Assembly: GCA_030390025.1 (NCBI GenBank)
Contig: CM059432.1
Location: forward strand, 56,608,001 to 56,672,000
DNA from: Squalus acanthias
Taxonomy: Eukaryota
Direction: 5' to 3'
Length of the DNA stretch: 64,000 nucleotides
Program-made: the position numbers and the translations under genes
Notes under the pieces: model-generated
Seen by the model: the letters and a program-made list of their open reading frames with translations, nothing else
The model's database searches: none
Told to the model about the DNA's origin: nothing
Shown: positions 2,469-63,484 of the stretch, one piece after another
Layout of the letters: every line of letters starts with the position of its first letter
Numbering within the stretch: the stretch's first letter is position 1

Positions 2469-3298
2469 AGATTAGAGTTTCCACTATGGGTGCAATCAGT
2501 GATTCTGCCACAATTTGCGCCCGTTTTGAAAAGTGTTTTCCCCACCTCTCTCCCCCCCCCCCCCCCCCCCCCCCGAGTTTCTGCTCAGGCTGATTTGCAT
2601 ATCGCCAAACGCAAAATCTGCTGTGAACCAGTGCAATTGGACAGCGTTTTAAAATGTAACTTTTTTGGAAAAAAAATTTGCTTTAAGTTTGATTAATACA
2701 GCTGGAAATGGGTTTATCACAAGAAATAACCATTTTAAATCACAGTGCCAATCCACCACTTATGAATAACCAGATTTTAAATTACTGAAAAAGACTTCTA
2801 AAAAGAAAAAATACAAAACTATTTACTCGTTAGATTGGGGTACAGTAGTCAGTTCCTTATTAAATTAGAAAAAAATTCATTCAATACCTTTCAAAACGTA
2901 CCTATTACTGTATTTGTGTCCAACAGATCCAGCTTAATTTTTGGAATAAAAACAGAAAATGCTGGAAGTACTCGGCGGGTCAGGCAGCATCTTGTGGAGA
3001 GAGAAACAGTTAACTTTTCTGGTCAATGACCTTTCATCAGAACTTAATTTTTGGAGCCTCCTCGAAGGCCTGCAAAGAAGCGCAATCAGCGGAAACTCCC
3101 AATGGTGATTAATTCACCTTGGGGACCTGGCCTGTTTTGTGGGCGGGGCCCACTTCTAGAGCGATGTTTTTAAAGCTAGCGCAAAAGATCGCTGAAGGAA
3201 ATTTGCGCTTGAAATTCTGCGATCTTTTGCGCCGGTTATGCCGATATCGGGAAAATTGCGTTGTATAAACCAACTCAATCGAGCGAGAACTCCAGGCC
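2469..3298. mobile_element. Non-autonomous PIF/Harbinger-like element with degenerate TIRs
   Basis: AAT on both flanks. Imperfect TIR agattagagtttcc / gagaactccaggcc. CpG-rich arms with an AT-rich core. Confidence 0.55.
2946..3042 (-). mobile_element. Short Penelope-like pLTR fragment with degenerate hammerhead core
   Basis: 13-bp TSD cttaatttttgga at 2933-2945 and 3043-3055. Minus strand reads AGUU-CUGAUGA-aaGGUCAuUGACCa-GAAA-agUU-AACU. Confidence 0.75.
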
Positions 3299-9050: not shown

Positions 9051-9245
9051 GATAGTACACACTGCAGCCACGGTACACCAATGGTGGAGGGAGTGGATGT
9101 TTAAGGTAGTGGATGGGGTGCCTGTCAAGTGGACTGCTTTGTCCTGGATAATTTCGAGCTTCTTGAGTGTTGTTGAAGCTGCACCCATCCAGGCACGTAG
9201 AGAGTTTTCCATCACACTCCTGACTTGTGCCTTATAGGTGGTAGA

Positions 9246-11253
9246 ATAAGATCCAAGGAGAGGACATATAAATTGGCCAGAAAAAGCAGCAAACCTGAGG
9301 ATTGGGAGCAGTTTAGGATTCAGCAAAGGAGGACAAAGGGTTTAATTAAGAGGGGGAAAATAGAGTATGAGAGTAAGCTTTCAGGGAACATAAAAACTGA
9401 CTGTGAAAGCTTCTATAGATATGTGAAGAGAAAAAGATTTGTGAAGTCAAGTGTAGGTCCCTTGCAGTCCGAATCAGGGGAATTTATAATGGGGAACAAA
9501 GAAATGGCAGACCAATTAAATACATACTTTGGTTCTGTCTTCACAAAGGAGGACACAAATAACCTCCCAGAGATGTCGGGGAACATAGGGTCTAATAAGA
9601 GGGAGGAACTGAAAGAAATCAGTATTTGTAGGGAAATGGTGTTCAGGAAATTGACGGGATTGAAGGCCGATAAATCCCCAGGGCCTGATATTCTACATTC
9701 TAGGGTACTTAAGGAAGTGGCCCTAGAAATAGTAGATGCATTACTGGTCATCTTCCAAAATTCCATAGACTCTGGAACAGTTCCCATGGATTGGAGGGTA
9801 GCTAATGTTACCCCACTATTCAAAAAAAGGTGGTAGAGAGAAAGCGGGGAATTATAGACCGGTAAGCCTGACATCGGTAGTGGGGAAAATGCTAGAGTCC
9901 ATTATAAAAGATGTAATAGCAAAGCACTTGGAAAACAGTGACAGGATCGGTCAAAGTCAACATGGATTTACAAAAGGTAAATCGTGCTTGACTAATCTAC
10001 TGGAATTTTTTGAGGATGTAACTGGTAAAATAGATAAGGGAGATCCAGTGGATGTGGTGTATTTGGACTTTCAGAAGGCTTTCAATAAAGTCCCGCATAA
10101 GAGATTAGCGTGTAAAGTTAAGGCACATGGGATTGGGGGCAGGGTACTGACTTGGATAGAGAACTGGTTGGCAGACGGGAAGCAAAGAGTTGGAATAAAC
10201 GGGTCTTTTTCCGAGTGGCAGGCAGTGACTAGTGGGGTGCCGCAGGGATCGGTCCTAGGACCCCAGCTATTCACAATGTATATTAATGATCTAGATGAGG
10301 GAACTAGATGTAATATCTCCAAGTTTGCAGACGACACAAAGCTGGGTGGGCGTGTGTGCTGTGAGGAGGATGCCGAAAAACTCCAGTATGATTTGGATAG
10401 GTTGGGTGATTGAGCAGATGCATGGCAAATGCAGTACAATGTGGATAAATGCGAGGTTATCCACTTTGGTGGCAAAAACAGGAAGGCAGATTATTATCTG
10501 AACGGCAATAGATTGGGAGAAGGGGAAGTGCAACGAGACCTGGGTGTCCTTGTGCACCAGTCGCTGAAGGTAAGCATGCAGGTGCAGCAGGCGGTTAAGA
10601 AGGCAAATGGTATGTTAGCCTTCGTAGCGAGAGGGTTCGAGTACAGGAACAAGGATGTCTTGCTGCAGTTGTACAGAGCCTTGGTGAGACCACACCTTGA
10701 GTATTGTGTGCAGTTTTGGTCGCCTTATCTGAGGAAGGATGTTCTTGCCATGGAGGGAGTGCAGCGAAGATTCGCCAGACTGATACCTGGGATGGCAGGA
10801 ATGACGTATGAGGAGAGATTGGGTCAATTAGGCTTATACTTGCTGGAGTTTAGAAGAATGAGAGGGGATCTCATTGAAACTTATAAAATTCTAACAGGAC
10901 TAGACAAACTAGACGCAGGAAGGATGTTCCCGATGGCCGGGGAGTCCAGAACCAGGGGTCACAGTCTAAGGATAAGGGGTAATCCATTTAGGACAGAGAT
11001 GAGGAGGAATTTCTTCACCCAGAGTGTGGTGAACCTGTGGAATTCTCTACCACAGAAGGCAGTTGAGGCCAACTCATTAAATATATTCAAGAAGGAGTTA
11101 GATATATTTCTTAAGACTAAAGGGATCAAGGGATATGGGGAGAAGGCAGGGACAGGGTACTGAATTTGGATGATCAGCCATGATCTCATTGAATGGCGGA
11201 GCAGGCTCGAGGGGCCGAATGGCCTACTGCTGCTCCTATCTTCTATGATTCTA
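9246..11253 (+). mobile_element. Young 5'-truncated CR1 LINE (RT plus 3'UTR)
   Basis: RT motifs [20 protein letters not shown] and KFADD with one frameshift and one stop. (ttctatg)-type tail. TSD tggtaga at 9239-9245 and 11254-11260. Confidence 0.95.
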
Positions 11254-28212: not shown

Positions 28213-28872
<660 letters not shown>

Positions 28873-28876
28873 CCTT

Positions 28877-29000
28877 TCGAAAGGTCATCAACCTGAACTG
28901 TTAACTCTGTTTCTCTCTCCACAGATGCTGCCTGACCTGCTGAGTATTTCCAGCATTTTTTGTTTCTTTTCAGATTTCCAGCATACGCAGTATTTTGCTT
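28877..29000 (+). mobile_element. Penelope-like pLTR fragment, hammerhead 5' core lost
   Basis: aaaggtcatcaacctgaactgttaactctgtttctctctccacagatgctgcctgacctgctgag belongs to the same family as 2946-3042. Confidence 0.7.
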
Positions 29001-29676: not shown

Positions 29677-32600
29677 ATAGAAACATAGAAGATAGGAGCA
29701 GGAGTAGGCCATTCGGCCTCTCGAGCCTGTTCCGCTATTTAATGAGATCATGGCTGATCATCCAAATTCAGTACCCTGTCCCTGCTTTCTCCCCATATCC
29801 CGTGATCCCTTTAGCCTTAAGAAATATATCTAAATATATTCAAGAAGGAGTTAATGAATTGGCCTCAACTGCCTTCTGTGGTAGAGAATTCCACAGGTTC
29901 ACCACTCTCTGGGTGAAGAAAGTCCTCCTCATCTCAGTCCTAAATGGCTTACCCCTTATCCTTAGACTGTGACCCCTGGTTCTGGACTACCCCGCCATTG
30001 GGAACATCCTTCCTGCATCTTGTCTGTCTAGTCCTGTTAGAATTTTGTAAGTTTCAGTGAGATCCCCGCTCATTCTTCTAAACTCTAGCGAATATAAGCC
30101 TAATCGACCCAATCTCTCTTCATAATTCATTCCTGCCATCCCAGGTATCAGTCTGGTGAATCTTCGCTGCACTCCCTCCATGGCAAGAACATCCTTCCTC
30201 AGATAAGGCGACCAAAACTGCACACAATACTCAAGGTGTGGTCTCACCAAGGCCCTGTACAACTGCAGCAAGACATCCTTGCTCCTGTACTCGAATCCTC
30301 TCACTATGAAGGCCAACATACCATTTGCCTTCTTAACCGCCTGCTGCACCTGCATGCTTACCTTCAGCGACTGGTGCACAAGGACTCCCAGATCTCGTTG
30401 CACTTCCCCTTTTCCCAATCTATTGTCGTTCAGATAATAATCTGTCTTCCTGTTTTTGCCACCAAAGTGGATAACCTCGCATTTATCCACATTATACTGC
30501 ATCTGCCATGCATCTGCCCAATCACCCAACCTGTCCAAATCATACTGGAGTTTCTCTGCATCCTCCTCACAGCACACACGCCCACCCAGCTTTGTGTCGT
30601 CTGCAAACTTGGAGATATTACATCTAGTTCCCTCGTCTAGATCATTAATATATATTGTGAATAGCTGGGGTCCTAGCACCGATCCTTGCGGTACCCCACT
30701 AGTCACTGCCTGCCACTCGGAAAAAGACCCGTTTATTCCGACTCTTTGCTTCCTGTCTGCCAACCAGTTCTCTATCCAAGTCAGTACCTTACCCCCAATC
30801 CCATATGCTTTAACTTTGCACGCTAATCTGTTATGCGGGACCTTATCGAAAGCCTTCTGATAGTCCAAATACACCACATCCACTGGTTTTCCCTTATCTA
30901 TTCTACCAGTTACATCCTCAAAAAAATTCCAGTAGATTAGTCAAGCATGATTTACCTTTTGCAAATCCATGTTGACTTTGTCCGATCCTGTCACTGTTTT
31001 CCAATTACTCTGCTATTACATCTTTTATAATGGACTCTAGCATTTTCCCCACTACCGATGTCAGGCTTACCGGTCTATAATTCCCCGTTTTATCTCTACC
31101 ACCTTTTTTAAATAGTGGGGTTACATTAGCTACCCTCCAATCCATGGGAACTGTTCCAGAGTCTATAGAATTTTGGAAGATGACCAGCAATGCGTCTACT
31201 ATTTCTAGGGCCACTTCCTTAAGTATCCTAAGATGTAGATTATCAGGCCCTGGGGATTTATCGGCCTTCAATCTCGTCAATTTCCCTAACACCATTTCCC
31301 TACAAATACTGATTTCATTCAATTCCTCCCTCTCATTAGACCCTATGTTCCCCCGACATCTCTGGGAGGTTATTTGTGTCCTCCTTTGTGAAGACAGAAC
31401 CAAAGTATGTATTTAATTCGTCAGCCATTTCTTTGTTCCCCATTTATAAATACCCAGTCTAAGATGGCCTGATCTCTAGTTGGTTCCTCGACATATTGGT
31501 CCAGGAAACCATCCCATATACACTCTAGGAATTCCTCCTCCACAGTATTGTTACTAATTTGGTTAGCCCAATCTATATGTAGATTAAAATCACCCATGAT
31601 AACTGCTGTGCCCTTATTGTACGCGTCTCTAATTTCCCGTTTAATGCCATCCCCAACCTCAGCATTACTGTTTGGGGGTCTGTATACAACTCCCACTAAC
31701 GTTTTCTGCCCCTTGGTATTTCTCAGCTCTACCCATACAGATTATACATCATCAGAGCTAATATCCTTCCTTACTATTGTGTTAATCTCCTCTTTAACCA
31801 GCAATGCTACCCCACCTCCTTTTCCTTTTTGCCTGTCCTTCCTGAATATTGAATACCCCTGGATGTTGAATTCCCAGCCTTGGTCACCCTGGAGCCATGT
31901 CTCCGTAATCCCAATTATATCATATCCGTTTACATCTATTTGCGCAGCTAATTCATCCACCTTATTACGAATGCTCCAACCCCCTGCCATTTTAGTTTAA
32001 ACCCTCCCCAACAGCACGAGCAAACACTCCCCCTAGGACATTGGTCCCGGTCCTGCCCAGGTGCAAACCGTCCAGTTTGTACTGGTCCCACCTCCCCCAG
32101 AACCGGTTCCAATGTCCCAGGAATTTGAATCCCTCCCCCTTGCACCATTCCTCTAGCCACGTATTCATCTGAAATATCCTTCTATTTCTACTCTGGCACT
32201 GGTAGCAATCCTGAGATTACTACTTTGAGGTCCTATTTTTTTAATTTACCTCCTAACTCCCTATATTCAGCTTTTAGAACCTCATCCTGTTTTTTACCTA
32301 TATTATTGGTACCTATATGCAGCACGACAACTGGCTGTTCACCCTCCCCCTCCAGAATGCCCTGCAGCCGCCCCAAGACATCCTTGACCATTACACCAGG
32401 GAGGCAGCATACCATCCTGGAGTCTCGTTTGCGGCCGCAGAAACACCTATCTATTCCCCTTACAATAGAATCCCCTATCACTATAGCTCTCCCGCTCTTT
32501 TTCCTCCCGTCCTGTGCAGCAGAACCACCCATGGTGCCAGGAAGTTGGCTGCTGCTGCCATCTCTCCCAACAATATCCAAAGCGGTATATCTGTTTGAGA

Positions 32601-39704: not shown

Positions 39705-40086
39705 CTCACCCTTCCCTATCTCTGTAATCTCCTCTAGCCCCACAACCAAGCCCCCCCCCCCCCCCCACCTGAGATATCTACACTCCTCTAATTCTGCCCT
39801 CTTGAGAATCCCTGATTATAATCGCTCAACTATTGGTGGCCGTGCCTTCTGTTGCCTCGGCCCTAAGCTCTGGAATTCCCTCCCTAAACCTCTCCGCCTC
39901 TCTACCTCTCTTTCCTCCTTTAAGATGCTCCTTAAAAACTACCTCTTTGACCAAGCTTTTGGTCATCTGCCCTAATTTCTCCTTATGTGGCTCAGTGTCA
40001 AATTTTTGTCTTATAATACTCCTGTGCAGCGCCTTGGGACGTTTTACTACGTTAAAGGCGCTATATAAATACAAGTTGTTGTTGTT
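39705..40086 (+). mobile_element. L2 LINE 3' end
   Basis: RSTIGGRAFCCLGPKLWNSLP...FDQAF and a (gtt)n tail. Confidence 0.88.
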
Positions 40087-40121
40087 GGAGAACTGCTACT
40101 CTGACTGAACACTGAAATTAT

Positions 40122-41813
40122 GGGCCAAATCTTCCTGGAAAAATAACGACAAGTTCATGACGCACACCATTATTAATGTGCAAATTGGCCAGCTAGTTCA
40201 GGGGAAGAAGAGATATGCTGGGAGTTGCGAATCTCCAGAACTTGCTGGTCGATTTACTTCGCCCAAATGGCATCTCGCCCTTGGCTTCCCCGTTATTTTT
40301 AAGAACTTGCTGGATTTGCACATTATTAGCCGATTAAACTCACCGCAGAAAGATGGGGCTTATAATTAACAGCAAAAGTACCCTTTGAACAACGTGATAA
40401 TTGTCAATGCAATGCCAATCAATCTGTCCGGCCCAGGGAGCAAATTAAACTGTTGAGTCTCATTCCTGCATGCAGTAAACGATCCTCAGAGATTTTTAAA
40501 AATTTAAAATTTCAATTTTTTGCTTACTTTTCCTTTCTGTATCTTTCTCTCTCTCTCTCTCTCTCTCTCTCAATCCAATTTTTGTTTCCCTATCTTTGGG
40601 GGTAACTTTAACCCAAAAAAACGGGTGGGTTGTGGGTCGGTTGGCAGTAAGTGTTAAAAATCAGAATCAGGACCAGAACCAGCCTCCAACTTGCCCACTT
40701 CCGGTTTTAACAGAGGCGGGATGGGGGGCGGCAGCCAACCCACTCCCAGGAGGCGGGACGCCCATTTAATTATTAAACGAGGTCTCAGATTTAACCACCA
40801 TTTTAAATTTAACTCTGGCTGGTCGGGTTTTGCAGGCCTCCAGAAAGCCGCCAGCTAATGGAAGGCGAGGACTGCAGGATCCAGGAGGTAAGTGCCTTTA
40901 CACTTACCTCCTGGATCCCGCATCCCTGCCTAACCCACCCCTCGAAATCGGAGACCCCATGCCCCCCATGAGGCCTCCGATTTCCCCGCCTCCCCCAACA
41001 CGGCCTCCGAATTCCCCCCCCCCCCCTCCACCGATGCTCCTCCGACCTACCCAATGTCGTCTGCCCTCCCCTAACCCCCCCCCCCCCCCCCCCACAACCC
41101 CCGATCGATCCTCCTCCGGCCCCCCACACGATCCTCCTCCAGCCCCCCCGTGATGATCCCCTAGCACCCATGTGATCCGCCTCCGGCCCCCCGATAAGGC
41201 CCCGGACCGCCAATCAGTCCCTGGCCTCCACGCGATGCTCTTCCGGCCCCCAGATCAGCTCCAGCCTCCACGCGATCCTCCTCTGGCTCCCCGATCAGCC
41301 CCAGGCCCCTACGCAATGCTCCTCCGGCCCCCATGCGATTACTCCCTCCCCCCTCCTCTCCGCGGCCTAGTGCTGCAGGCCTACCCACCTGCAACCTCTC
41401 CATCTGGCTGGCTGTGGGTGGGAAACGGAGGTTTCAAATGCACATCCGGCCCTAACATTAAATTAGGCAGGGCCTGCAGGGAAATCTGTTCTCCTGGGTT
41501 TCCCAACCGCTCCCAACCCGCCATAGTATTAAAATTCAGGCCTTTATTTCTTTCTATGCCTGATTCGACTCTAATTCACCCACTCTAATTTATCCTCCTT
41601 GTCCCTCATTCCTCTGTTTCTATCTTATTCCTTAAATCTCATTGGTTAAGGAGATACACTATTGTTCCTGTCGTTCACTAAGGTTCCAGATGCTGTGTTA
41701 TCCTTGCAGATCCAGCAGTTATGGTGCAAATCATATTCAAACTGAAGGATGCTAGAAAAAGACTAACTAACGGAGCATGCTGCGAGATTCCCCACTCCAG
41801 CAAGATTTGGCCC
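40122..41813. mobile_element. Harbinger-like MITE, family E (outer element of a nested pair)
   Basis: 18-bp TIR gggccaaatcttcctgga / tccagcaagatttggccc (1 mismatch) and TAT TSD. Confidence 0.88.
40598..41542. mobile_element. Harbinger-like MITE, family F, nested, with C-rich internal repeats
   Basis: ttt|gggggtaactttaa ... ttaaaattcaggcc|ttt, with internal cgatcctcctcc-type repeats. Confidence 0.75.
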
Positions 41814-43455
41814 TATGTTTTAAAAAAAAAAAAATTGCCTGTATGTTTGATCTCACAGCAGCTTTGCTGCACTGCTGTTAATTAAAGACATCAAGAGTTT
41901 CTTGTTTTTTCTCATTGCACCTTTATCCTAAATTCATTGTAAATCACCACTTTGGATTATTATACATTGTCTCATATGTACAGTGTAATAGAGCAGAACT
42001 GATAATGTAAAGGTATGGTGGGATTTAAAGGTCATATAAATTGATTACTTAAAGATCGATTCTTCAATTTGTCACTTCAGTAACCCTGTAATGAGAAGGT
42101 GTATTTTTTCCAAGAATTCCATCAGTTTATGTTCCCAGTGTTAAAATTAGTCAACATAACATTACATGTGTACATTTCGGCAATATTGGGACACAACATA
42201 TATATTGATGCATAGTCTCAGGACACAGTGCATATGATCAATCTCAGGACATTGTGAAATGAGTCTTGATGTATGTGATGCTCTGCTGTTTTATCTATTC
42301 CATCAACATTTCTTTCTTTCTTATTTCACCATATTGGACCATTAAATGACCTAAATTTGTTGTGAACAAAAAAAGTTAGAAAGCCGTGTTAAACCTATTT
42401 TTCCCAATTTGTAAACTCAAATTGGAAGATCTTACTTATGGGTTAAAACACCCAAGTGCTTTTATGGACTGTAATACTAGCTTTAAAATAAATGTGTTAA
42501 CTCTTTGCGATGTTTCTCGTTTTCTACTTTGTTTTAAATCCCCTGACTCTGCTTTTCCTGGCAATCAATGCAGTGCACGTCATAGCAAGGTGGCAATTTC
42601 AGAGCTATCTGACTGCAGGGAGACACAGGCCGTTTATCCTGTTTTTGTCAGTGAGTGCGCTGTAGCCAGAAAGCTAAGACAGGGAATGTGGCATACTGAT
42701 TGTGTAATGCTGCTACATCCATCTTTTTATAGTGGATTCATAATACCACTACCTGTGATCTTCCAGTTTTGTTTATAATTGCACAGTTGCCAGCCAAGAA
42801 GACGGCAAACCACCTGTAGTTTATTACGAATTGACATGTACACTGACAAATCTTTCATTTACATATATATTAAATCAAGTACTACATTCTTCAGGTGAGA
42901 TGAATGTTATCGCAGTCAGCATTTTTTTTATTGATAAGAAATTTATTTGAGCTAATATGCCGAATCAGCAATTTTTTCTTTTTTTAGCTCTATGTTGTCA
43001 CTGAGAGAACTGAGTAAACTGTATCTTGCAAATGTAATTCAAAGATGGGATTGGGGAGGGGGAAGGATGAGAACACTTTATTATTTTGTATCACAGTAGC
43101 TTGGCACTAAAATGTGCATTGCCGTGGAGCATATTCCGGACTAGCTCAGTTGATAAAAGAAGCATGTAACTAATTCACGTAGGCCTGGAAGATCCCAGGC
43201 TCAATCTCTGGCGTGCTGAGTTAGTTGATCTCAGATGGGCCCGCAGTAGAAATACTACAGTAATGCCTCAGTACCTTGAATTAAGGAGCAGAAAATCAAC
43301 AAGGTTTCCTGCTCTTGATCATTATTCTGTATATTCTGGGTATTCTGTGTGCTTGTATTAATGTTCATGATGCGGAGATGCCGGTGTTGGACTGGGGTGG
43401 ACAAAAGTGAGAAGTCGCACAACACCAGGTTATAGTCCAACAGCTTTATTTGAAA

Positions 43456-43492
43456 TCACAAGCTTTCGGAGCGCTGCTCCTTCATCAGGTGA
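43456..43492 (-). ncRNA. Minimal hammerhead ribozyme motif (mirror copy)
   Basis: Exact reverse complement of 43548-43584. Confidence 0.85.
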
Positions 43493-43547
43493 AGTGAAGA
43501 AATACAAATGAAGAAATATATGCTGTGCCCATTTGTATTTCTTCACT

Positions 43548-43584
43548 TCACCTGATGAAGGAGCAGCGCTCCGAAAGCTTGTGA
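43548..43584 (+). ncRNA. Minimal type I hammerhead ribozyme motif
   Basis: UCAC-CUGAUGA-A-GGAGC-agc-GCUCC-GAAA-GC-UU-GUGA: intact core, 5-bp stem II, stem I UCAC/GUGA, and palindromic AGCU in place of stem III. Confidence 0.85.
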
Positions 43585-44195
43585 TTTCAAATAAAGCTGT
43601 TGGACTATAACCTGGTGTTGTGCGACTTCTCACTTTTGTATTAATGTTGGATGAGGAATGGGTTATCTTTGGCTGGGATGCCATATCCTTTGAAACAGCT
43701 TGCTAATACTCTGTGTTTAAACTTACACATGAAAATTGGCCATTTGGGTCAGGCACTAAAGGCTGTCCAGGAGAGATGGGGAGAAATTTTGAACTGGAGA
43801 AAAATAAATTATCTGTCTATACATAGTGAGTCTTGCATTTAGTGTGTGTATATTCAGAATATGTGTCACACTTGCATCTGATTGACTGACTGAAATATAA
43901 TATTGAAAGCAGCACAAATCACAAGGGAACAGATGGAAAACCTAACAGTGAGCAAGTTCCTTCATCGTTGCTGGGTCAAGATCCTGGAACTCCCTGCCTA
44001 ACATCACTGTGGGAGTACCTACACCATATGAACATAAGAAATAAGAGCAGGAGTAGGCCATACGGCCCGTCAAGCCTGCTCCGCCATTCAATAAGATCAT
44101 GGTTGATCATCGACCTCTACTCCATTTTCCTGCCCGATCTCCATATCCCTTGATTACCCTAGAGTCCAAAAATCTATCTATCTTAGCCTTGAATA

Positions 44196-45678
44196 GAAGA
44201 ACATAAGAAATAGGAGCAGGAATAGGCCACTTGGTCCCTCGAGCCTGCTCCGCCATTCAATAAGATCATGGCTGATCTTGGGGCACAAAGCCACTTCCCT
44301 GCCCACTCCCCATAACCCTTTACTCCCTTATCTTGTAAAAATCTGTCTATCTCCACCTTAAATGTATTTAATGACCCAGCCTCCACGGCTCTCTGGGGCA
44401 GAGAATTCCACAGATTTACGACCCTCTGAGAAAAGAAATTCCTCCTCATCTCAGTTCTAAAAGGGCAACCCTTTATTCTGAAACTATGCCCCCGAGTTCT
44501 AGATTTCCCCACGAGGGGAAACATCCTCTCTGCATCTACCTTGTCGAGCCCCCTCAGTATCATATGTTTCAATAAGATCACCTCTCATTCTTCTAAATTC
44601 CAATGAGTATCGGCCCAACCTTTCTTCATAAGTCAACCCCCTCATCTCAGGAGTCAACCATGTGACTCGTCTCTGAACTGCCTCCAATGCAAGTATATCC
44701 TTCCTTAAATAAGGAGGCCAAAACTGTACGCAGTACTCAAGGTGTGGTTTCACCATTACCCTGTACAGTTGTAGCAGGACTTCCCTGCTTTTATACTCCA
44801 ACCCCCTTGCAATAAAGGCCAACATTCCATTTGCCTTTTTGATTACTTGCTGCACCTGCATGCTAACTTTTTGTGTTTCATGCACAAGGACCCCCAGGTC
44901 CCTCTGAACTGTAGCATTTTGTAATCTCTCTCCATTTAAATAATAATTTGCTTTTTTATTTTTCCTGCCAAAGTGGATAACCTCACAATTTCCCACATTA
45001 TACTCCATCTGCCAAATGTTTGCCCACTCACTTAGCCTGTCTATATCCCTTTGTAGATTCTTTGAGTCCTCTGCACAACTTGCTTTCCCATACATCTTTG
45101 TATCATCCGCAAACTTGGCAACATTACACTCGGTCCCTTCATCCAAGTCATTAATGTAGATTGTAAATAGTTGAGGCCCCAGCACCGATCCCTGTGGCAC
45201 CCCACTAGTTACCATTTGCCAACCGGAAAATGACCCATTTATCCCGACTCTCTGCTTTCTGTTAGTGAGCCAATTCTCTATCCATGCTAATATATTACCC
45301 CCAACTCCGTGAGCTCTTATCTTATGCAGTAACCTTTTATGTGGCACCTTATCGAATGCCTCCTGGAAATCCAAATACACCACATCCACTGGCTCACCCT
45401 TATCCACCCTGCTCGTTACATCCTCAAAGATCTCCAGCAAATTTGTTAAACATGATTTCCCTTTCATAAAACCATGTTGACTCTGCTTGACTGCATTATG
45501 ATTTTCAAAATGCCCTGCTACTGCTTCCTTAATGAAGAACTCCAGCATTTTCCCAACGACAGATGTTAGGCTAACTGGTCTATAGTTTCCTGCTTTCTGT
45601 CTCCCTCCTTTCTTAAATAGGGGTGTTACATTTGCGGTTTTCCAATCCGCTGGGACCTCTCCAGAGTCCAGGGAATTT
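44196..45678 (-). mobile_element. CR1 copy Y, inserted in X in the same orientation
   Basis: Has its own tail at 44196 and a continuous RT (QHGF, DFQEAFDKV, KFADD). Confidence 0.88.
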
Positions 45679-46146
45679 CTCAAAGACTCAGCAAGCACAG
45701 CCCTCTGGGGCAGAGAATTCCAAAGATTCACAACCCTCTGAGTGAAGAAATTCCTCCTCATCTCAGTCTTAAATGGTCTACCTCTTATCCTGAGACTATG
45801 CCCCCGAGTTCGAGACACTCCAGCCAGGGGAAACAACCTCTCGGCATCTACCCTGTCAATCCTCTTCAGAATCTTGTATGTTTCAATGAGATCACCTCTC
45901 ATTCTTCTAAACTCCAGAGAGTATAGGCCCATTCTACACAATCTCTCATCATAGGACAGCCCTCTCATTCCAAGAATCAATCTAGTGAACCTTCGTTGCA
46001 CCGCCTCCAAGGCAAGTATATCCTTCCTTAGATAAGGAGACCAAAACTGTGCACAGTACTCCAGGTGTGGTCTCACCAAGGCCCTGTACAATTGTAGCAA
46101 GACTTCCTTACTCTTATACTCCAACCCCCTTGCAATAAAGGCCAAC

Positions 46147-48960
46147 GGAATAAGGTAGGAGAACTTGGAGCATGGATTGGTACTTGGGACTACGATGTGG
46201 TGGTCATTACGGAGACATGGTTAGAACAGGGACAGGAATGGTTGTTGGAAGTTCCGGGGTATAGATGTTTCAGTAAGAGTAGGGAAGTTGGTAAGAAAGG
46301 TGGAGGAGTAGCATTGTTAATCAAGGATAGTTTAACAGCGGCAGAAAGGCAGTTCGAGGGGGATCTGCCGTCTGAGGTAATATGGGCTGAAGTTAGAAAT
46401 AGGAAAGGAGCGGTCACGTTGTTAGGAGTTTTCTACAGGCCCCCAAATAGTAATAAAGATGTGGAGGAAGAAATTGCAAAGCAGATTATGAATAGGTGTG
46501 GAGGTCACAGAGTAGTTGTCATGGGTGACTTCAACTTTCCAAATATTGATTGGAACCTTTATAGGTCAAACAGTTCGGATGGGATAGTTTTTGCACAGTG
46601 TGTGCAGGAGGGTTTCCTGACACAATATGTGGATAGGCCGACAAGAGGTGGGGCCACGTTGGATTTGGTACTGGGTAATGAACCGGGCCAAGTGTTTGAT
46701 TTGTATGTGGGAGAGCACTTTGGAAATAGTGACCACAATTCGGTAACTTTCACAATTGCAATGGAGAGGGATAGGGCCATACGGCAGGGCAGGGTTTATA
46801 ATTGGGGGAGGGGTAATTATGATGCGATTAGGCAAGAATTAGGGAGTATAAGATGGGAACAGAAACTATCAGGGAAAGGCACAAACGAAAAGTGGAGCTT
46901 TTTCATGGAGCAATTACTGCGTGTCCTTGATAGGTATGTCCTGTCAGGCAGGGAGGAAATGGCCGAGTGAGAGAACCATGGTTCACAAAAGAGGTTGAAT
47001 GTCTCGTCAAGAGGAAAAAGGAAGCGTATGTAAGGATGAGAAAACAAGGTTCAGTTGGGTCGATTGAGGGGTACAAGGTAGCAAGGAATGAGCTAAAAAA
47101 AGAGCTTAGGAGAGCTAGGAGGGGGCATGAGAAGTCCTTGGCGGGTCGGATCAAGAAAAACCCCAAGGCTTTTTACTCTTATGTGAGAAATAAAAGAATG
47201 ACCAGGGTGAGGGTAGGGCCGGTCAAGGACAGTAGTGGGAACTTGTGCATGGAGTCAGAAGAGATAGGAGAGGTGATGAATGAATACTTTTCGTCAGTGT
47301 TCACCGAGGAGAGGGGCCATGTTCTTGAGGATGAGAGTGTGATAAAGGTGGATAGGCTGGAGGTGGTAGATGTTCTGAGGGAAGATGTTTTAGCAATTTT
47401 GAAGAACCTGAGGGTCGATAAGTCCCCTGGGCCAGATGGGATATATCCTAGGATTCTTTGGGAGGCAAGGGTGGAGATTGCAGAGCCTCTGGCTTTGATC
47501 TTTGGGTCCTCACTGTCCACGGGGATGGTGCCAGAGGACTGGAGAGTGGCGAATGTTGTTCCTCTCTTCAAGAAAGGAAATAGGAATGACCCTGGTAATT
47601 ATAGGCCGGTTAGTCTTACTTCGGTGGTTGGTAAGATAATGGAAAAGGTCCTGAGGGATAGGATTTATGACCATTTGGAAAGGGGCAACTTAATCAGGGA
47701 TAGTCAACACGGATTCGTGAAGGCTAAGTCTTGCCTAACAAATTTGATTGAATTCTTTGAGGAGTAGATGAAGGTAGAGCAGTTGATGTCGTATACATGG
47801 ATTTTAGTAAGGCGTTTGATAAGGTTCCCCATGGTCGTCTCATGAAGAAAGTAAGGAGTTGTGGGATAGAGGGAAATTTGGCCGATTGGATAAGTAACTG
47901 GCTATCTCATAGAAGGCAGAGGGTGGTGGTGGATGGAACATTTTCGGACTGGAGACCAGTTACCAGCGGTGTGCCACAAGGGTCGGTGCTGGGTCCTCTG
48001 CTGTTTGTGATTTTTATCAATGACTTGGAGGAGGGGACTGAAGGGTGGATCAGTAAATTTGCTGATGACACCAAGATTGGTGGAGCAGTGGATGAGGTGG
48101 AGGGCAGTTGTAGGCTGCAAAGAGACATTGATAGGATGCAGAGCTGGGCCGAAAAATGGCAGATGGAATTTAACCCTGATAAGTGCGAGGTGATTCATTT
48201 TGGTAGGGCAAATTTGAATAAGGATTACAGGGTCAACGGCAGGGTTCTGAGGAACGTGGAGGAGCAGAGGGATCTGGGGGTTCATATCCACAGATCTCTG
48301 AAGGTTGCCACTCAAGTGGATAGAGCAGTAAAGAAGGCCTATGGTGTGTTGGCGTTTATTAACAGAGGGTTTGAGTTTAAGAACCGTGGGGTTATGCTGC
48401 AACTGTACAGGACCTTGGTGAGACCACATTTGGAATATTGTGTGCAGTTCTGGTCACCTCACTATAGGAAGGACGTGGAAGCATTGGAAAGAGTACAAAG
48501 GAGATTTACCAGGATGCTGCCTGGTTTGGGGGGGAGGTCTTATGAGGAAAGATTGAGGGAGTTGGGGCTTTTCTCTTTAGAGCGGAGGAGGATGAGAGGC
48601 AACTTAATAGAGGTTTATAAGATGATGAGGGGGATAGATAGAGTGGATGTTCAGAGACTATTTCCTCGGGTAGAGGCAGCTGTTACAAGGGGGCATAACT
48701 ATAAGGTGCATGGGGGGAGATATAGAAGGGATGTCCGAGGTAGATTCTTTACTCAGAGAGTGGTTGGGGTGTGGAATGGACTGCCTGCTGTGATAGTGGA
48801 GTCGGACACTTTAGGAACTTTCAAGCGGTTATTGGATAAGCACATGGAGCACACCAGAGTGATAGGGAGTGTGATAGCTTGATCTTGGTCTCGGACAATG
48901 CTCGGCACATCATCGAGGGCCGAAGGGCCTGTACTGTGCTGTACTGTTCTATGTTCTATG
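46147..48960 (+). mobile_element. Young CR1 copy Z (EN plus RT, two frame breaks), inserted in X in the opposite orientation
   Basis: ITETWL, YRPPN, GDFN and SDH endonuclease motifs. RT at 47797-48882. (gttctat)2 tail. Confidence 0.94.
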
Positions 48961-50212
48961 CCATTTGCCTTCCTTATTGCTTGCTGTACCTGCATGCTAG
49001 CTTTCTGTGTTTCTTGCACGAGGACACCCAAATCTCTCTGAACACCAACATTTGAAAGTTTCTCACCATTTAAAAAATATTCTGTTTTTCTATTCTTCCT
49101 GCCAAAGTGAATAACCTCACATTTCCCTACATTATACTCCATCTGCCACCTTACTGCCCACTCACTTAGTCTATCTATATCCCTTTGCAGAATCTTTGTG
49201 TTCTCCTCACAGGTTACTGTCCCACCTAGCTTTGTATCATCAGTAAACTTGGATACATTACACTCGGTTCCCTTCATCTTGGTCATTAATATAGATTGTA
49301 AATAGCTGAGGCCCCAACACTGATCCTTGCGGCACCCCACTAGTTATAGCCTGCCAACCTGAAAAAGATCTGTTTATCCCTACTCTCTGTTTTCTGTCCG
49401 TAACCAATCCTCTATCCCTGCTACTATATTACCCCCAACCCCATGAGCCCTAATCTTGTGTAATAACCTTTTATGTGGCACCTTATCAAATGCCTTTTGG
49501 AAATCCAAATATACTACATCCACTGGTTCCCCTTTATCTACCCTGCTAGTTACATCCTCAAAAAAACTCTAATAAATTTGTCAAACACGATTTCCCTTTC
49601 ATAAAACCATGTTGTGACTCTGCCTAATGATGTTATGATTTTCCAAGTACCCTGATACCACTTCCTTAACAATGGTTTCCAGCATTTTCCCGATGACTGA
49701 TGTCAGGCTAACTGGCCTGTCGTTCCCTGTTTTTTCTCTCCCTCCTTTCTTGAATAGCGGTGTTACATTTGCGACCTTCCAATCCGGTGGGACCATTCTA
49801 GAATCTAGGGAATTTTGGAAGATCAAAACCAATGCATCCACTATCTCTTCAGCCACCTCTTTTAGAACCCTAGGATGTAGGCCGTCAGGTCCAGGGGATT
49901 TGTCAGCTTTTAGTCCCATTAGTATCTCTAGTACTTTTTTTCTACTTATATTAATTATGTTAAGTTCCCCACCCTCATTAGACCCTTGGTTCCCCACCCC
50001 ATGGACTGCAGCAGTTCAAGAAGGCGGCTCACAACCACCTTCTCAAGGGCATTTCGGGATGGGCAATAAATGCTGGTCTTGCCAGTGACACCCATATCCC
50101 GTGAATGAATAAATAAAAAAAATTAAGAAGTGGCATCTTTAATTCTGTTTTATGATTTTTTTTTTTTAAAGACAGTCATGAGTCATGTCTTGCTGGTCTA
50201 TATCAAGAGAAT

Positions 50213-61725: not shown

Positions 61726-61836
61726 CACCCGGCAATGCCACCTTCTCTTAGATATCTTCAACTCAACAGAGCATGAACTGACCATTAGTGCAAAGAATAA
61801 TGAGGATTTAATTCTGCATGCCGGAGAGTGTCAGAG
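61726..61836 (+). CDS. TRAPPC9: TRAPPC9 next coding exon, 111 nt, phase 2 to phase 2 (absent from the ORF track)
   Basis: Acceptor ttctgttccaacag| and donor ag|gtaggt. AG+C completes Ser, then [36 protein letters not shown](R), continuing the TRAPPC9 sequence in frame. Confidence 0.96.
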
Positions 61837-62375
61837 GTAGGTGACTGAGAGCAAGACCGACTAATTATAAACAGTAATCTGTCAGAAATAGTTACTGACA
61901 TTTAGTCTATTCAAAAAATTTCTGCTGTGATTTTTCTAGAAATTAAATTTACAAAATATTGGTTTTGATATTTTGTTGTATTCAGTGAATGTTTGCTTCA
62001 GTAACCATTCAGGATTTTGTATGGAATGTGTATTCTGTGTGCCCTGATTACAATCATAGTAAATGTGATTCCAATAGCAGTGCAAAAAGAATAACTGTTT
62101 CTCTGGCCCTCATTGAAACATATCAGAGAGTAGTCCATTAAGCTGTTGATTATGAGCAGATATAACATTTGAGAAAAACAATGACCAAATGCTAGAAGCA
62201 CTTACCGTGCATCACTGAGCAATTCATTTAGATCGCAATCTATTCAGGGCAAAAATAGAAAAATGCTGGAAACACTCATTAGGTCAGACAGTATCTGTAT
62301 AAAAAGGAAAAATGTTCAAGTTTCAGGTGAGAAGTTGCACAACACCAGGTTATAGTCCAACAGCTTTATTTGAAA

Positions 62376-62412
62376 TCACAAGCTTTCGGAGTGCTGCTCC
62401 TTCGTCAGGTGA
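62376..62412 (-). ncRNA. Minimal hammerhead ribozyme motif (mirror copy, one stem II mismatch)
   Basis: UCAC-CUGACGA-A-GGAG-cagca-CUCC-GAAA-GC-UU-GUGA. Confidence 0.78.
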
Positions 62413-62599
62413 AGTGAAGAAATACATATGGGCACAGCATATATAGTCAGAGAATACTGCCAGACGACTACAGTTAATCTTTCTAACTGCCCTTTATCAC
62501 TCTGCCGAGGTGTGATAAAGGGCAGTTAGAAAGATTAACTGTAGTCGTCTGGTAGTATTCTCTGACTATATATGCTGTGCCCATATGTATTTCTTCACT

Positions 62600-62636
62600 T
62601 CACCTGACGAAGGAGCAGCGCTCCGAAAACTTGTGA
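62600..62636 (+). ncRNA. Minimal hammerhead ribozyme motif (CUGACGA core, AGCU palindrome mutated to AACU)
   Basis: UCAC-CUGACGA-A-GGAGC-agc-GCUCC-GAAA-AC-UU-GUGA. Confidence 0.78.
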
Positions 62637-63484
62637 TTTCAAATAAAGCTGTTGGACTATAACCTGGTGTTGTGCAACTTCTCACTTTTGTCCACCCCAG
62701 TCCAACACCGGCATCTCCGCATCAAGTTTCAGGTGTGTAACTTCATCAGAATATTCACAGCAACTTTGGTTTAAACAGTCTTCGTTGACTCTCCCCCAGG
62801 TGGTCTTTGACAGGTCTTTGTATACGTGTTAATGAGGCTGGCTGTCTAGTTAAGAGTAATTGACTTCTCAATAGCAAGACTGTATATAAAAAAAAGCGAG
62901 GATATTAAGGTTTGGACATTAATGATAATCTAGTTAGTTTGACCTAGTTGCAACTGATGTGGAGGCAACATGCAACACCATAGACAGGAACACTTGCGTA
63001 ATTTCGATTATGACCACAGATGGTAGAGATTTGAATGTTACTAATCTACCAATAAGAGTTTGCTTTCTACTAATGAAAAGAAAGTAATTCAAAGGAACTT
63101 AACCAATTGGTTTGCCTGCTTAATTTTTGAACAGATTCAAAACTGCAGTATTATTTGAGCTGACTTCAAAAAATGGTTATATTTCAATTCTACTGTAAAA
63201 CACTATATTAATAAATTTGTTTAATAATTTAGTCTAGTCCAACCTTGCTTTGCAAGATTGATTGTCATCTTCTAAAGCAATGTGAGTATGTATTGGCAAT
63301 CCTACATATAAATCCAGAGACGATAAATAAATCTATTGTTTGCCCAGGGCACGTTATACCAGATTAATTTGCATACTAGGTCACGCTTTGGTTCTTAGGG
63401 AGTCAGAGTGCTTGCCTATGGGAGCTGGTTTTTGTATTGAGCATGAGAAAAGCATGTTAAGAGTTTGAATCAGAACTTTGCATA

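Follow-up and report, generated by a model that had tools for sequence, protein, structure and literature searches.

[quoted passage not shown] Pairs of hammerhead motifs on opposite strands, 100 to 700 bp apart, have also been published; according to the accessible text of the same report, the minimal hammerhead monomer does not cleave in vitro, and dimers and trimers cleave weakly (PMC4209133). The enzyme of the anole element PAc cuts and extends both strands. The two 3' ends of PAc have been traced to two RT start sites, and its hammerhead cleaves only with the element's protein and is dispensable for insertion in vitro; as far as the available text of that study goes, RNA-seq ends at the cut site were not found (Frangieh et al., PMC11167929). 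Intronic ribozymes are described as sparing splicing when they cleave slowly and blocking it when they cleave fast (PMC2995048 and PMC10919898, citing Dye 2006 and Fong 2009). Xenopus retrozymes are reported to be under-represented in introns, though 42 to 44% of them still lie there (preprint 10.64898/2026.07.22.740005), and one of nine Xenopus retrozyme dimers cleaved. In flies, siRNAs matching Penelope inverted regions are known (PMC3681739).

The window (i.e., the whole 64-kb stretch of shark DNA analyzed here) contains a 274-base DNA hairpin that is likely the dead end-piece of a very abundant PLE. We consider it highly probable that the hairpin arose in one recent insertion that was dead on arrival, in which two short end-pieces of a Penelope-like retroelement of very high copy number, both 5'-truncated, were joined head to head; its hammerhead motifs are predicted to be passive cargo. 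As such, it is a clean and young but ordinary example of the already published head-to-head insertion of an inverted pLTR with a tail. Our literature search, whose scope excluded subscription papers, Repbase, and several supplements, returned nothing on this shark family; the supplements (i.e., the alignments of the 2014 paper, the anole GenBank file, and the preprint tables) may already list the family.

Features of the hairpin, its host gene, and the second insertion (window coordinates)
Feature	Position	Strand	Basis or remark
TRAPPC9 exon upstream of the host intron	28233..28372	+	protein search
TSD, left copy, 13 bp, AT-rich, ATT on both strands	43353..43365	+	13/13 identical to right copy
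One-sided tail, 35 nt, 3' extension of the left arm	43366..43400	-	none on right arm
Tailed arm, 5'-truncated pLTR-like piece	43401..43510	-	arm complementarity
Left-arm minimal hammerhead motif, antisense in TRAPPC9 pre-mRNA, with C3 at 43488 and the cut predicted after 43460	43456..43492	-	motif descriptor
Fold-back junction, 10-nt re-copy of 43495-43504, cuts into TATA-like box	43509..43518	+	sequence comparison
Arm lacking a tail, with 14 nt of its native upstream sequence that are absent from the left arm	43516..43639	+	last 4 nt overlap TSD
Right-arm minimal hammerhead motif, sense in pre-mRNA	43548..43584	+	sequence and motif descriptor
TSD, right copy, 13 bp	43636..43648	+	first 4 nt overlap right-arm end
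Next TRAPPC9 exon	about 61726..61836	+	alignment to shark TRAPPC9
Second insertion, same family, next intron	62316..62735	.	arms, tail, TSD, motifs

The hairpin (43366..43639) consists of two inverted arms of 110 nt each (43401-43510 and 43530-43639; 100% complementary) around a spacer of 19 nt. Most of this apparent loop (14 of the 19 bases; 43516-43529) is the right arm's own upstream sequence. The folding energy of the region is -224.4 kcal/mol (z, -28.5), and equal stability was reached in none of 100 shuffles. An earlier sequence-only reading had proposed a 110-bp inverted repeat with an intact hammerhead core on each strand, a one-sided tail of about 35 nt, and a 13-bp TSD inside a TRAPPC9 intron. 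Each of these features was recovered, the tail on the left arm only and the TSD with 13 of 13 identical positions, where "intact" describes the sequence of the cores and not their activity. The proposed Penelope-type identity is likewise supported by the anatomy (i.e., the inverted arm, the tail, the TSD, the minimal-hammerhead traits, and two family-wide 3' ends).

The intron assignment follows from two plus-strand exons that match consecutive parts of TRAPPC9, aligning to residues 803-850 and 849-888 of a shark TRAPPC9, respectively. In the protein search, the 46-aa exon (28234-28371) yielded 658 matches among 662 candidates, and the named ones were nearly all TRAPPC9; this first exon was equally close to reptiles. 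The second exon was identical to the bullhead shark protein at 37 of 40 residues in a comparison comprising three chondrichthyan proteins only. Pfam and PDB searches with the short exons gave no match. The hairpin lies mid-way in the 33-kb intron, with its closest exons 15 kb and 18 kb away, and is the sole perfect short-loop duplex and the best dsRNA candidate among 11 inverted pairs of at least 80 nt there. Other repeats surround it. To its right (44000-49600) is a nested stack of LINE-like reverse-transcriptase fragments, and an inverted LINE pair (9200-11250 and 29680-31400; 95% identical; 19 kb apart) spans the TRAPPC9 exon at 28233; the LINE label of these repeats is assigned from motifs. 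Another small hairpin lies inside a GC-rich repeat at 40847-40945, with sub-threshold miRNA matches.

A strict hammerhead descriptor (4-bp stem I, core boxes, 4- to 8-bp stem II, palindromic stem III half, and UH) matched three sites in the window (43552+, 43488-, and 62408-) and none in 150 Markov control windows of equal length. The two cores of the hairpin, starting at 43552 (+) and 43488 (-), are 64 nt apart, and the CUGANGA and GAAA boxes, U16.1, and H17 are present. The sense motif has a 4-bp stem I (43548-51/43581-84), the core at 43552-58, an extra A (A43559), a 5-bp stem II with a 3-nt loop (43560-72; G10.1-C11.1 is G43560-C43572), GAAA at 43573-76, and a palindromic 4-nt stem III half at 43576-79. 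The triplet is CUU, and the predicted cut after U17 (43580) agrees with the position of about 43580 suggested earlier. The minimal-hammerhead traits of an extra base between 9 and 10.1, G10.1-C11.1, palindromic 15.2-16.2, and a short helix I are found. Helix II is 5 bp long, the canonical length being 4 bp and that of Schistosoma families 7 to 8 bp. In a check with hammerhead models, as the sequence-only reading had proposed, no Rfam hammerhead family matched at an E value of ≤10 in 40000-47000 or on a single arm; it is therefore the motif descriptor on which the two cores are called ribozymes. An ATG inside the hammerhead core was considered as an ORF start and rejected; its frame runs into a stop at codon 10, and the second copy has ACG in place of the ATG.

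Two variable positions were observed within the motif. At 43467, core G12 shows a CpG-type change that accounts for 4.8%, 7.3%, and 10% of the depth in three public runs and for 0.04% in run X10, presumed to be an RNA run. In X10, another CpG site, which lies outside the ribozyme, shows a similar fall; young copies dominating this run may alone explain both drops. At 43472, a subfamily variant in the loose ends of run X1 keeps stem II via a G-U pair with a 4-nt loop, a hint of structure-preserving change.

The second insertion of the family, which the earlier reading had missed, is built like the first, with its tail on the opposite (right) side (62327-62724). Its arms (62327-62500 and 62512-62685; 174 nt) differ by three mismatches, making it the older copy; its tail, ending at 62724, is 39 nt long, and its TSD is 14 bp (62316-29 and 62722-35). 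The insertion features of EN+ PLEs recur in the window, with an adjacent, inverted, 5'-truncated terminal copy in both of its two insertions, tails of 35 and 39 nt, and TSDs of 13 and 14 bp. The target of the second copy lacks ATT, which is found in one of the two targets. Each of its hammerheads carries one change, in stem II in one arm and at position 15.2 in the other. Where the two copies can be compared, three positions are alike in both arms of the first copy and differ in both arms of the second; variants shared by the arms of a copy but not between copies imply a single source and a single event for each hairpin. Since arm lengths, loops, and end points differ between the two copies, the hairpin appears to have been made at insertion and does not represent a fixed unit. 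The distance from the predicted cut to the tail end is 94 nt in the first copy and 92 nt in the second, and all four arms run 51 to 121 nt 5' of the cut site, which implies that their templates were uncut there.

Both arms of the second copy carry a TATA-like box and an Inr-like motif; the box lies 21 nt before a TCACT motif that directly precedes stem I. The two sets of motifs (62567-62599 and, on the minus strand, 62445-62413) point outwards. If these motifs were active, transcripts would start within one arm, without the antisense arm, and one would be antisense to TRAPPC9. In the contig mapping, three of the four opposite-strand joints displayed fall at 43493-43495, on the same Inr-like motif. 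A different and older repeat that has a hammerhead-like core is also present in the window, in three decayed copies (62251-62749 [-], 2944-3040 [-], and 28879-28971 [+]). Each of these is a single arm; relative to TRAPPC9, two run antisense and one sense, and none passes the strict descriptor. The second copy was inserted into one of them, and its TSD covers the GAAA and cut-site region.

Contigs from 4 of 24 public runs were mapped on 42900-43529 (i.e., the left flank, tail, left arm, and loop). In run X1, 18,026 contigs fell on the arm, with a summed depth of 2 to 7 million versus 18 on the flank; this sum is not a copy number, and divided by 31 for overlap it is still on the order of ten thousand. 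The family is very high-copy. Loose ends with diverse flanks (agreement, 0.36 to 0.39) peaked in X1 at 43365-67 (61, 66, and 65 contigs) and at 43403 (70 contigs) in 24 of 433 rows, and peaks at the same places were found in run X5; X1 and X5 are DNA runs of two studies. The family therefore has two preferred 3' ends about 36 nt apart, i.e., one tail-length. Toward the 5' side, arm depth declines steadily, as random truncation would give. Low-agreement loose ends from three runs share a faint motif just beyond the tail, which could reflect an ORF start or a target bias.

At the locus itself, one X1 contig carries the left junction and ends 21 nt into the tail; X1 may come from the sample that was sequenced for this window. 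In a related species, a 1,938-nt contig follows the flank (28 substitutions and 18 gap letters; about 94% alike) to exactly 43365 and continues with 387 letters unlike the tail; it likely represents the empty site with a single target copy. The identical arms and perfect TSD make the insertion look young. In X5, from a second individual, the flank contig stops at 43194 (55% of the run covered). Run X10, presumed to be of RNA, has contigs on the arm and none on the intron flank in 9 of 30 bins and is uninformative on the TRAPPC9 locus.

Beyond the observed anatomy, second copy, family abundance, two 3' ends, and junction microhomology, we infer the following steps of formation. The element's endonuclease would have cut an AT-rich site with a stagger of 13 nt. 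RT would have copied RNA that was not cut at the hammerhead, from the distal start site on one side (giving the tail) and from the proximal start site on the other, and the two truncated cDNA ends would have been joined with a short slip; the 10-nt re-copy at the fold-back junction is likely such a template slip. Within TRAPPC9 pre-mRNA, the two arms would pair to form a 110-bp duplex to be removed with the intron, and the hairpin would persist as near-neutral and not through a rescue by masking.

Snap-back (i.e., self-primed) synthesis could have produced the inverted arm out of a single cDNA, with the endonuclease then trimming off the tail at one side, an account to which we give close to an even chance. 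The arms within each copy share private variants, those of the first copy being identical, and short inverted matches flank both loops, all of which suit a single self-copied cDNA; moreover, published proposals invoke self-priming in rotifer elements (PMC3846280) and explain the tail by endonuclease resolution (PMC8557442). However, each arm of the first copy has sequence that the other lacks (the 35-nt tail on one and 14 nt upstream on the other), so snap-back needs the extra trimming step. The target and the element also share microhomologies of 4, 3, and 3 nt at all three measurable outer ends (naive joint chance, 4e-6, from two insertions only), which fits RNA priming at both ends, as do the two-strand extension and two start sites described for the anole enzyme (PMC11167929). 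These microhomologies and the arm-unique sequence suggest twin priming, and we favor two priming events, one from each nicked strand at the two start sites, joined by a slip. It is possible, and we propose tentatively, that PLE head-to-head insertions arise in this way, with both nicked strands of a 13- to 14-nt staggered cut annealing by 3 to 4 nt to the element RNA at two RT start sites and the cDNAs being joined at their far ends. Snap-back with trimming is closer to the published proposals and appears to fit about as well. A literature search for Penelope and twin priming, judged by titles, found nothing on a PLE mechanism.

If twin priming were true, the inverted arm, the one-sided tail, and the TSD would be explained in one step, and each insertion would come with its ribozyme already locked by an antisense arm and with a dsRNA trigger directed at the family it belongs to. 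Twin priming across the genome would link the in vitro finding of 2024 (extension of both strands from two start sites) to a genomic pattern, and the abundance of the family makes the model testable by junction counts.

The earlier reading had gone further and proposed that the antisense arm masks the ribozyme, so that hairpins may be tolerated in either orientation; on this model, solo sense copies would cut the pre-mRNA and be purged. The pairing of the two arms in the pre-mRNA is borne out by folding predictions, in which stems I and II have a probability of 0.0000 at every transcript 3' end tested and a ribozyme-compatible ensemble of the full hairpin costs 66.8 kcal/mol at 37°C, and more when cooler. 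Such strong predicted masking speaks for the proposal, as do the two intact-family copies in these introns, which are both hairpins, one per orientation (n = 2), the finding of no solo arm of the family in 64 kb, the reported block of splicing by fast intronic ribozymes, and the depletion of retrozymes from Xenopus introns, by which some selection against genic copies may be possible.

As an explanation of tolerance, however, masking is not supported, and we regard the model as very unlikely. A solo arm is predicted to misfold too: its penalty for the ribozyme fold is 4.4 to 5.0 kcal/mol, and it would hold stems I and II briefly (probability, about 0.85 to 0.97 at 43584-43590) and leave the ribozyme fold about 40 nt past the cut site, with stem II at about 1 to 4% and stem I below 0.1% by 43620. 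It also has no stem III partner, and a strand-swapped double hammerhead has a predicted energy of -20.7 kcal/mol versus -30.5 kcal/mol for the inactive dimer. The only other sense motif of the family in the window lies at a distance of 19 kb, within a hairpin of its own that locks it, and carries a G15.2-to-A change. Together with the sparing of splicing by slow cleavage, these points indicate that there is probably little to mask in the intron, and masking by the antisense arm, though predicted, is probably redundant. The published accounts, as far as they were available, weigh in the same direction, with an inactive minimal monomer, weak dimers, one of nine Xenopus retrozyme dimers cleaving, and an anole hammerhead that needs protein; furthermore, hairpins are the normal insertion product, so two of them require no selection. 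A strand bias, which we rate as unlikely, would be the first population evidence of minimal hammerheads cutting host RNA. Use of the TRAPPC9-intron duplex by ADAR or Dicer, which the same reading had raised, would be plausible.

We found no RT or GIY-YIG ORF linked to the family terminus, either in the ORF-frame protein search or with the core pattern in metagenome and viral contigs (0 stretches in each); the frame through the arm and tail gave 0 candidates in the protein search. A 4,818-aa repetitive worm protein, the sole match among 1.84 billion to the last 30 codons of the frame, was rejected as a chance match; its score sums 15 repeat stretches, and it has no tblastn match in the window. 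Given that no RT or GIY-YIG ORF was linked, a non-autonomous, SINE-like master is conceivable. That the hairpin itself is a SINE- or retrozyme-like mini-element moving in pre-formed shape is highly improbable: the very high copy number and the lack of an ORF link are what such an element would show, but the two copies differ in arm lengths, loops, and end points, pointing to hairpins made anew, depth falls toward the 5' side as in random truncation, and tandem units, the defining trait of non-LTR retrozymes, are absent. A MITE was rejected because the ends are asymmetric and the arms variable. A functional host RNA element (i.e., a miRNA or endo-siRNA precursor or a TRAPPC9 splicing regulator) is scarcely credible, for although the hairpin is the only perfect short-loop duplex among the intron's longer inverted pairs and Penelope inverted repeats yield siRNAs in flies (PMC3681739), every miRNA-family match is below the Rfam gathering score (best, 77.3 versus 101 bits) and reflects pairing alone, the element is likely absent from the relative with the similar flank, and it lies far from either exon.

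Taken as a single dead-on-arrival insertion, the TRAPPC9-intron locus itself carries little weight, being one of very many Penelope-type remnants and far from exons. The family, by comparison, is a large natural data set for two published open questions, namely, how inverted-plus-tail insertions form and what the minimal hammerhead does in vivo.

Compared with known systems, the locus shares with the EN+ PLE insertions of inverted pLTR and tail (Arkhipova et al. 2013, PMC3846280; Craig et al. 2021, PMC8557442), as described in their available text, the head-to-head 5'-truncated arms, the one-sided tail of 30 to 40 nt, and the TSD. It differs from rotifer and other EN+ insertions in that the arms are cut to 110 to 174 nt without an ORF and in the length of the TSD (13 to 14 bp versus 8 to 10 bp in rotifers), and the shark-window family is known here from termini alone. 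As in the rotifer Penelope pLTR, where a TATA-like box is described about 20 nt before a TCACT Inr-like motif (PMC3846280), the second copy has the two 21 nt apart. The core boxes, the extra base 9/10.1, G10.1-C11.1, the palindromic 15.2-16.2, and the 4-bp helix I are those described for minimal hammerheads in metazoan PLEs (Cervera and de la Pena 2014, PMC4209133); here, helix II is 5 bp (7 to 8 bp in Schistosoma families), the triplet is CUU, and the cores are 64 nt apart, and sharks are not mentioned in the available text of that paper. The non-LTR retrozymes of vertebrates (Li et al., bioRxiv 10.64898/2026.07.22.740005) are likewise non-coding, PLE derived, and equipped with a type I hammerhead, with one chondrichthyan case known from the accessible text; they are head-to-tail tandem units, whereas the present family is arranged head to head with a TSD and a tail and has no tandem unit. 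With PAc, a Poseidon-type element of Anolis carolinensis (Frangieh et al. 2024, PMC11167929), the family shares two 3' ends separated by the tail, a tail that ends some 90 nt downstream of the hammerhead cut (85 to 92 nt as derived from the published numbers, versus 94 and 92 nt here), an uncut RNA template, and, in the first copy, ATT in the target. The ORF of PAc starts at stem II, whereas here that frame stops at codon 10 and its ATG is ACG in the second copy; the likeness to PAc drawn here is one of published description and distances.
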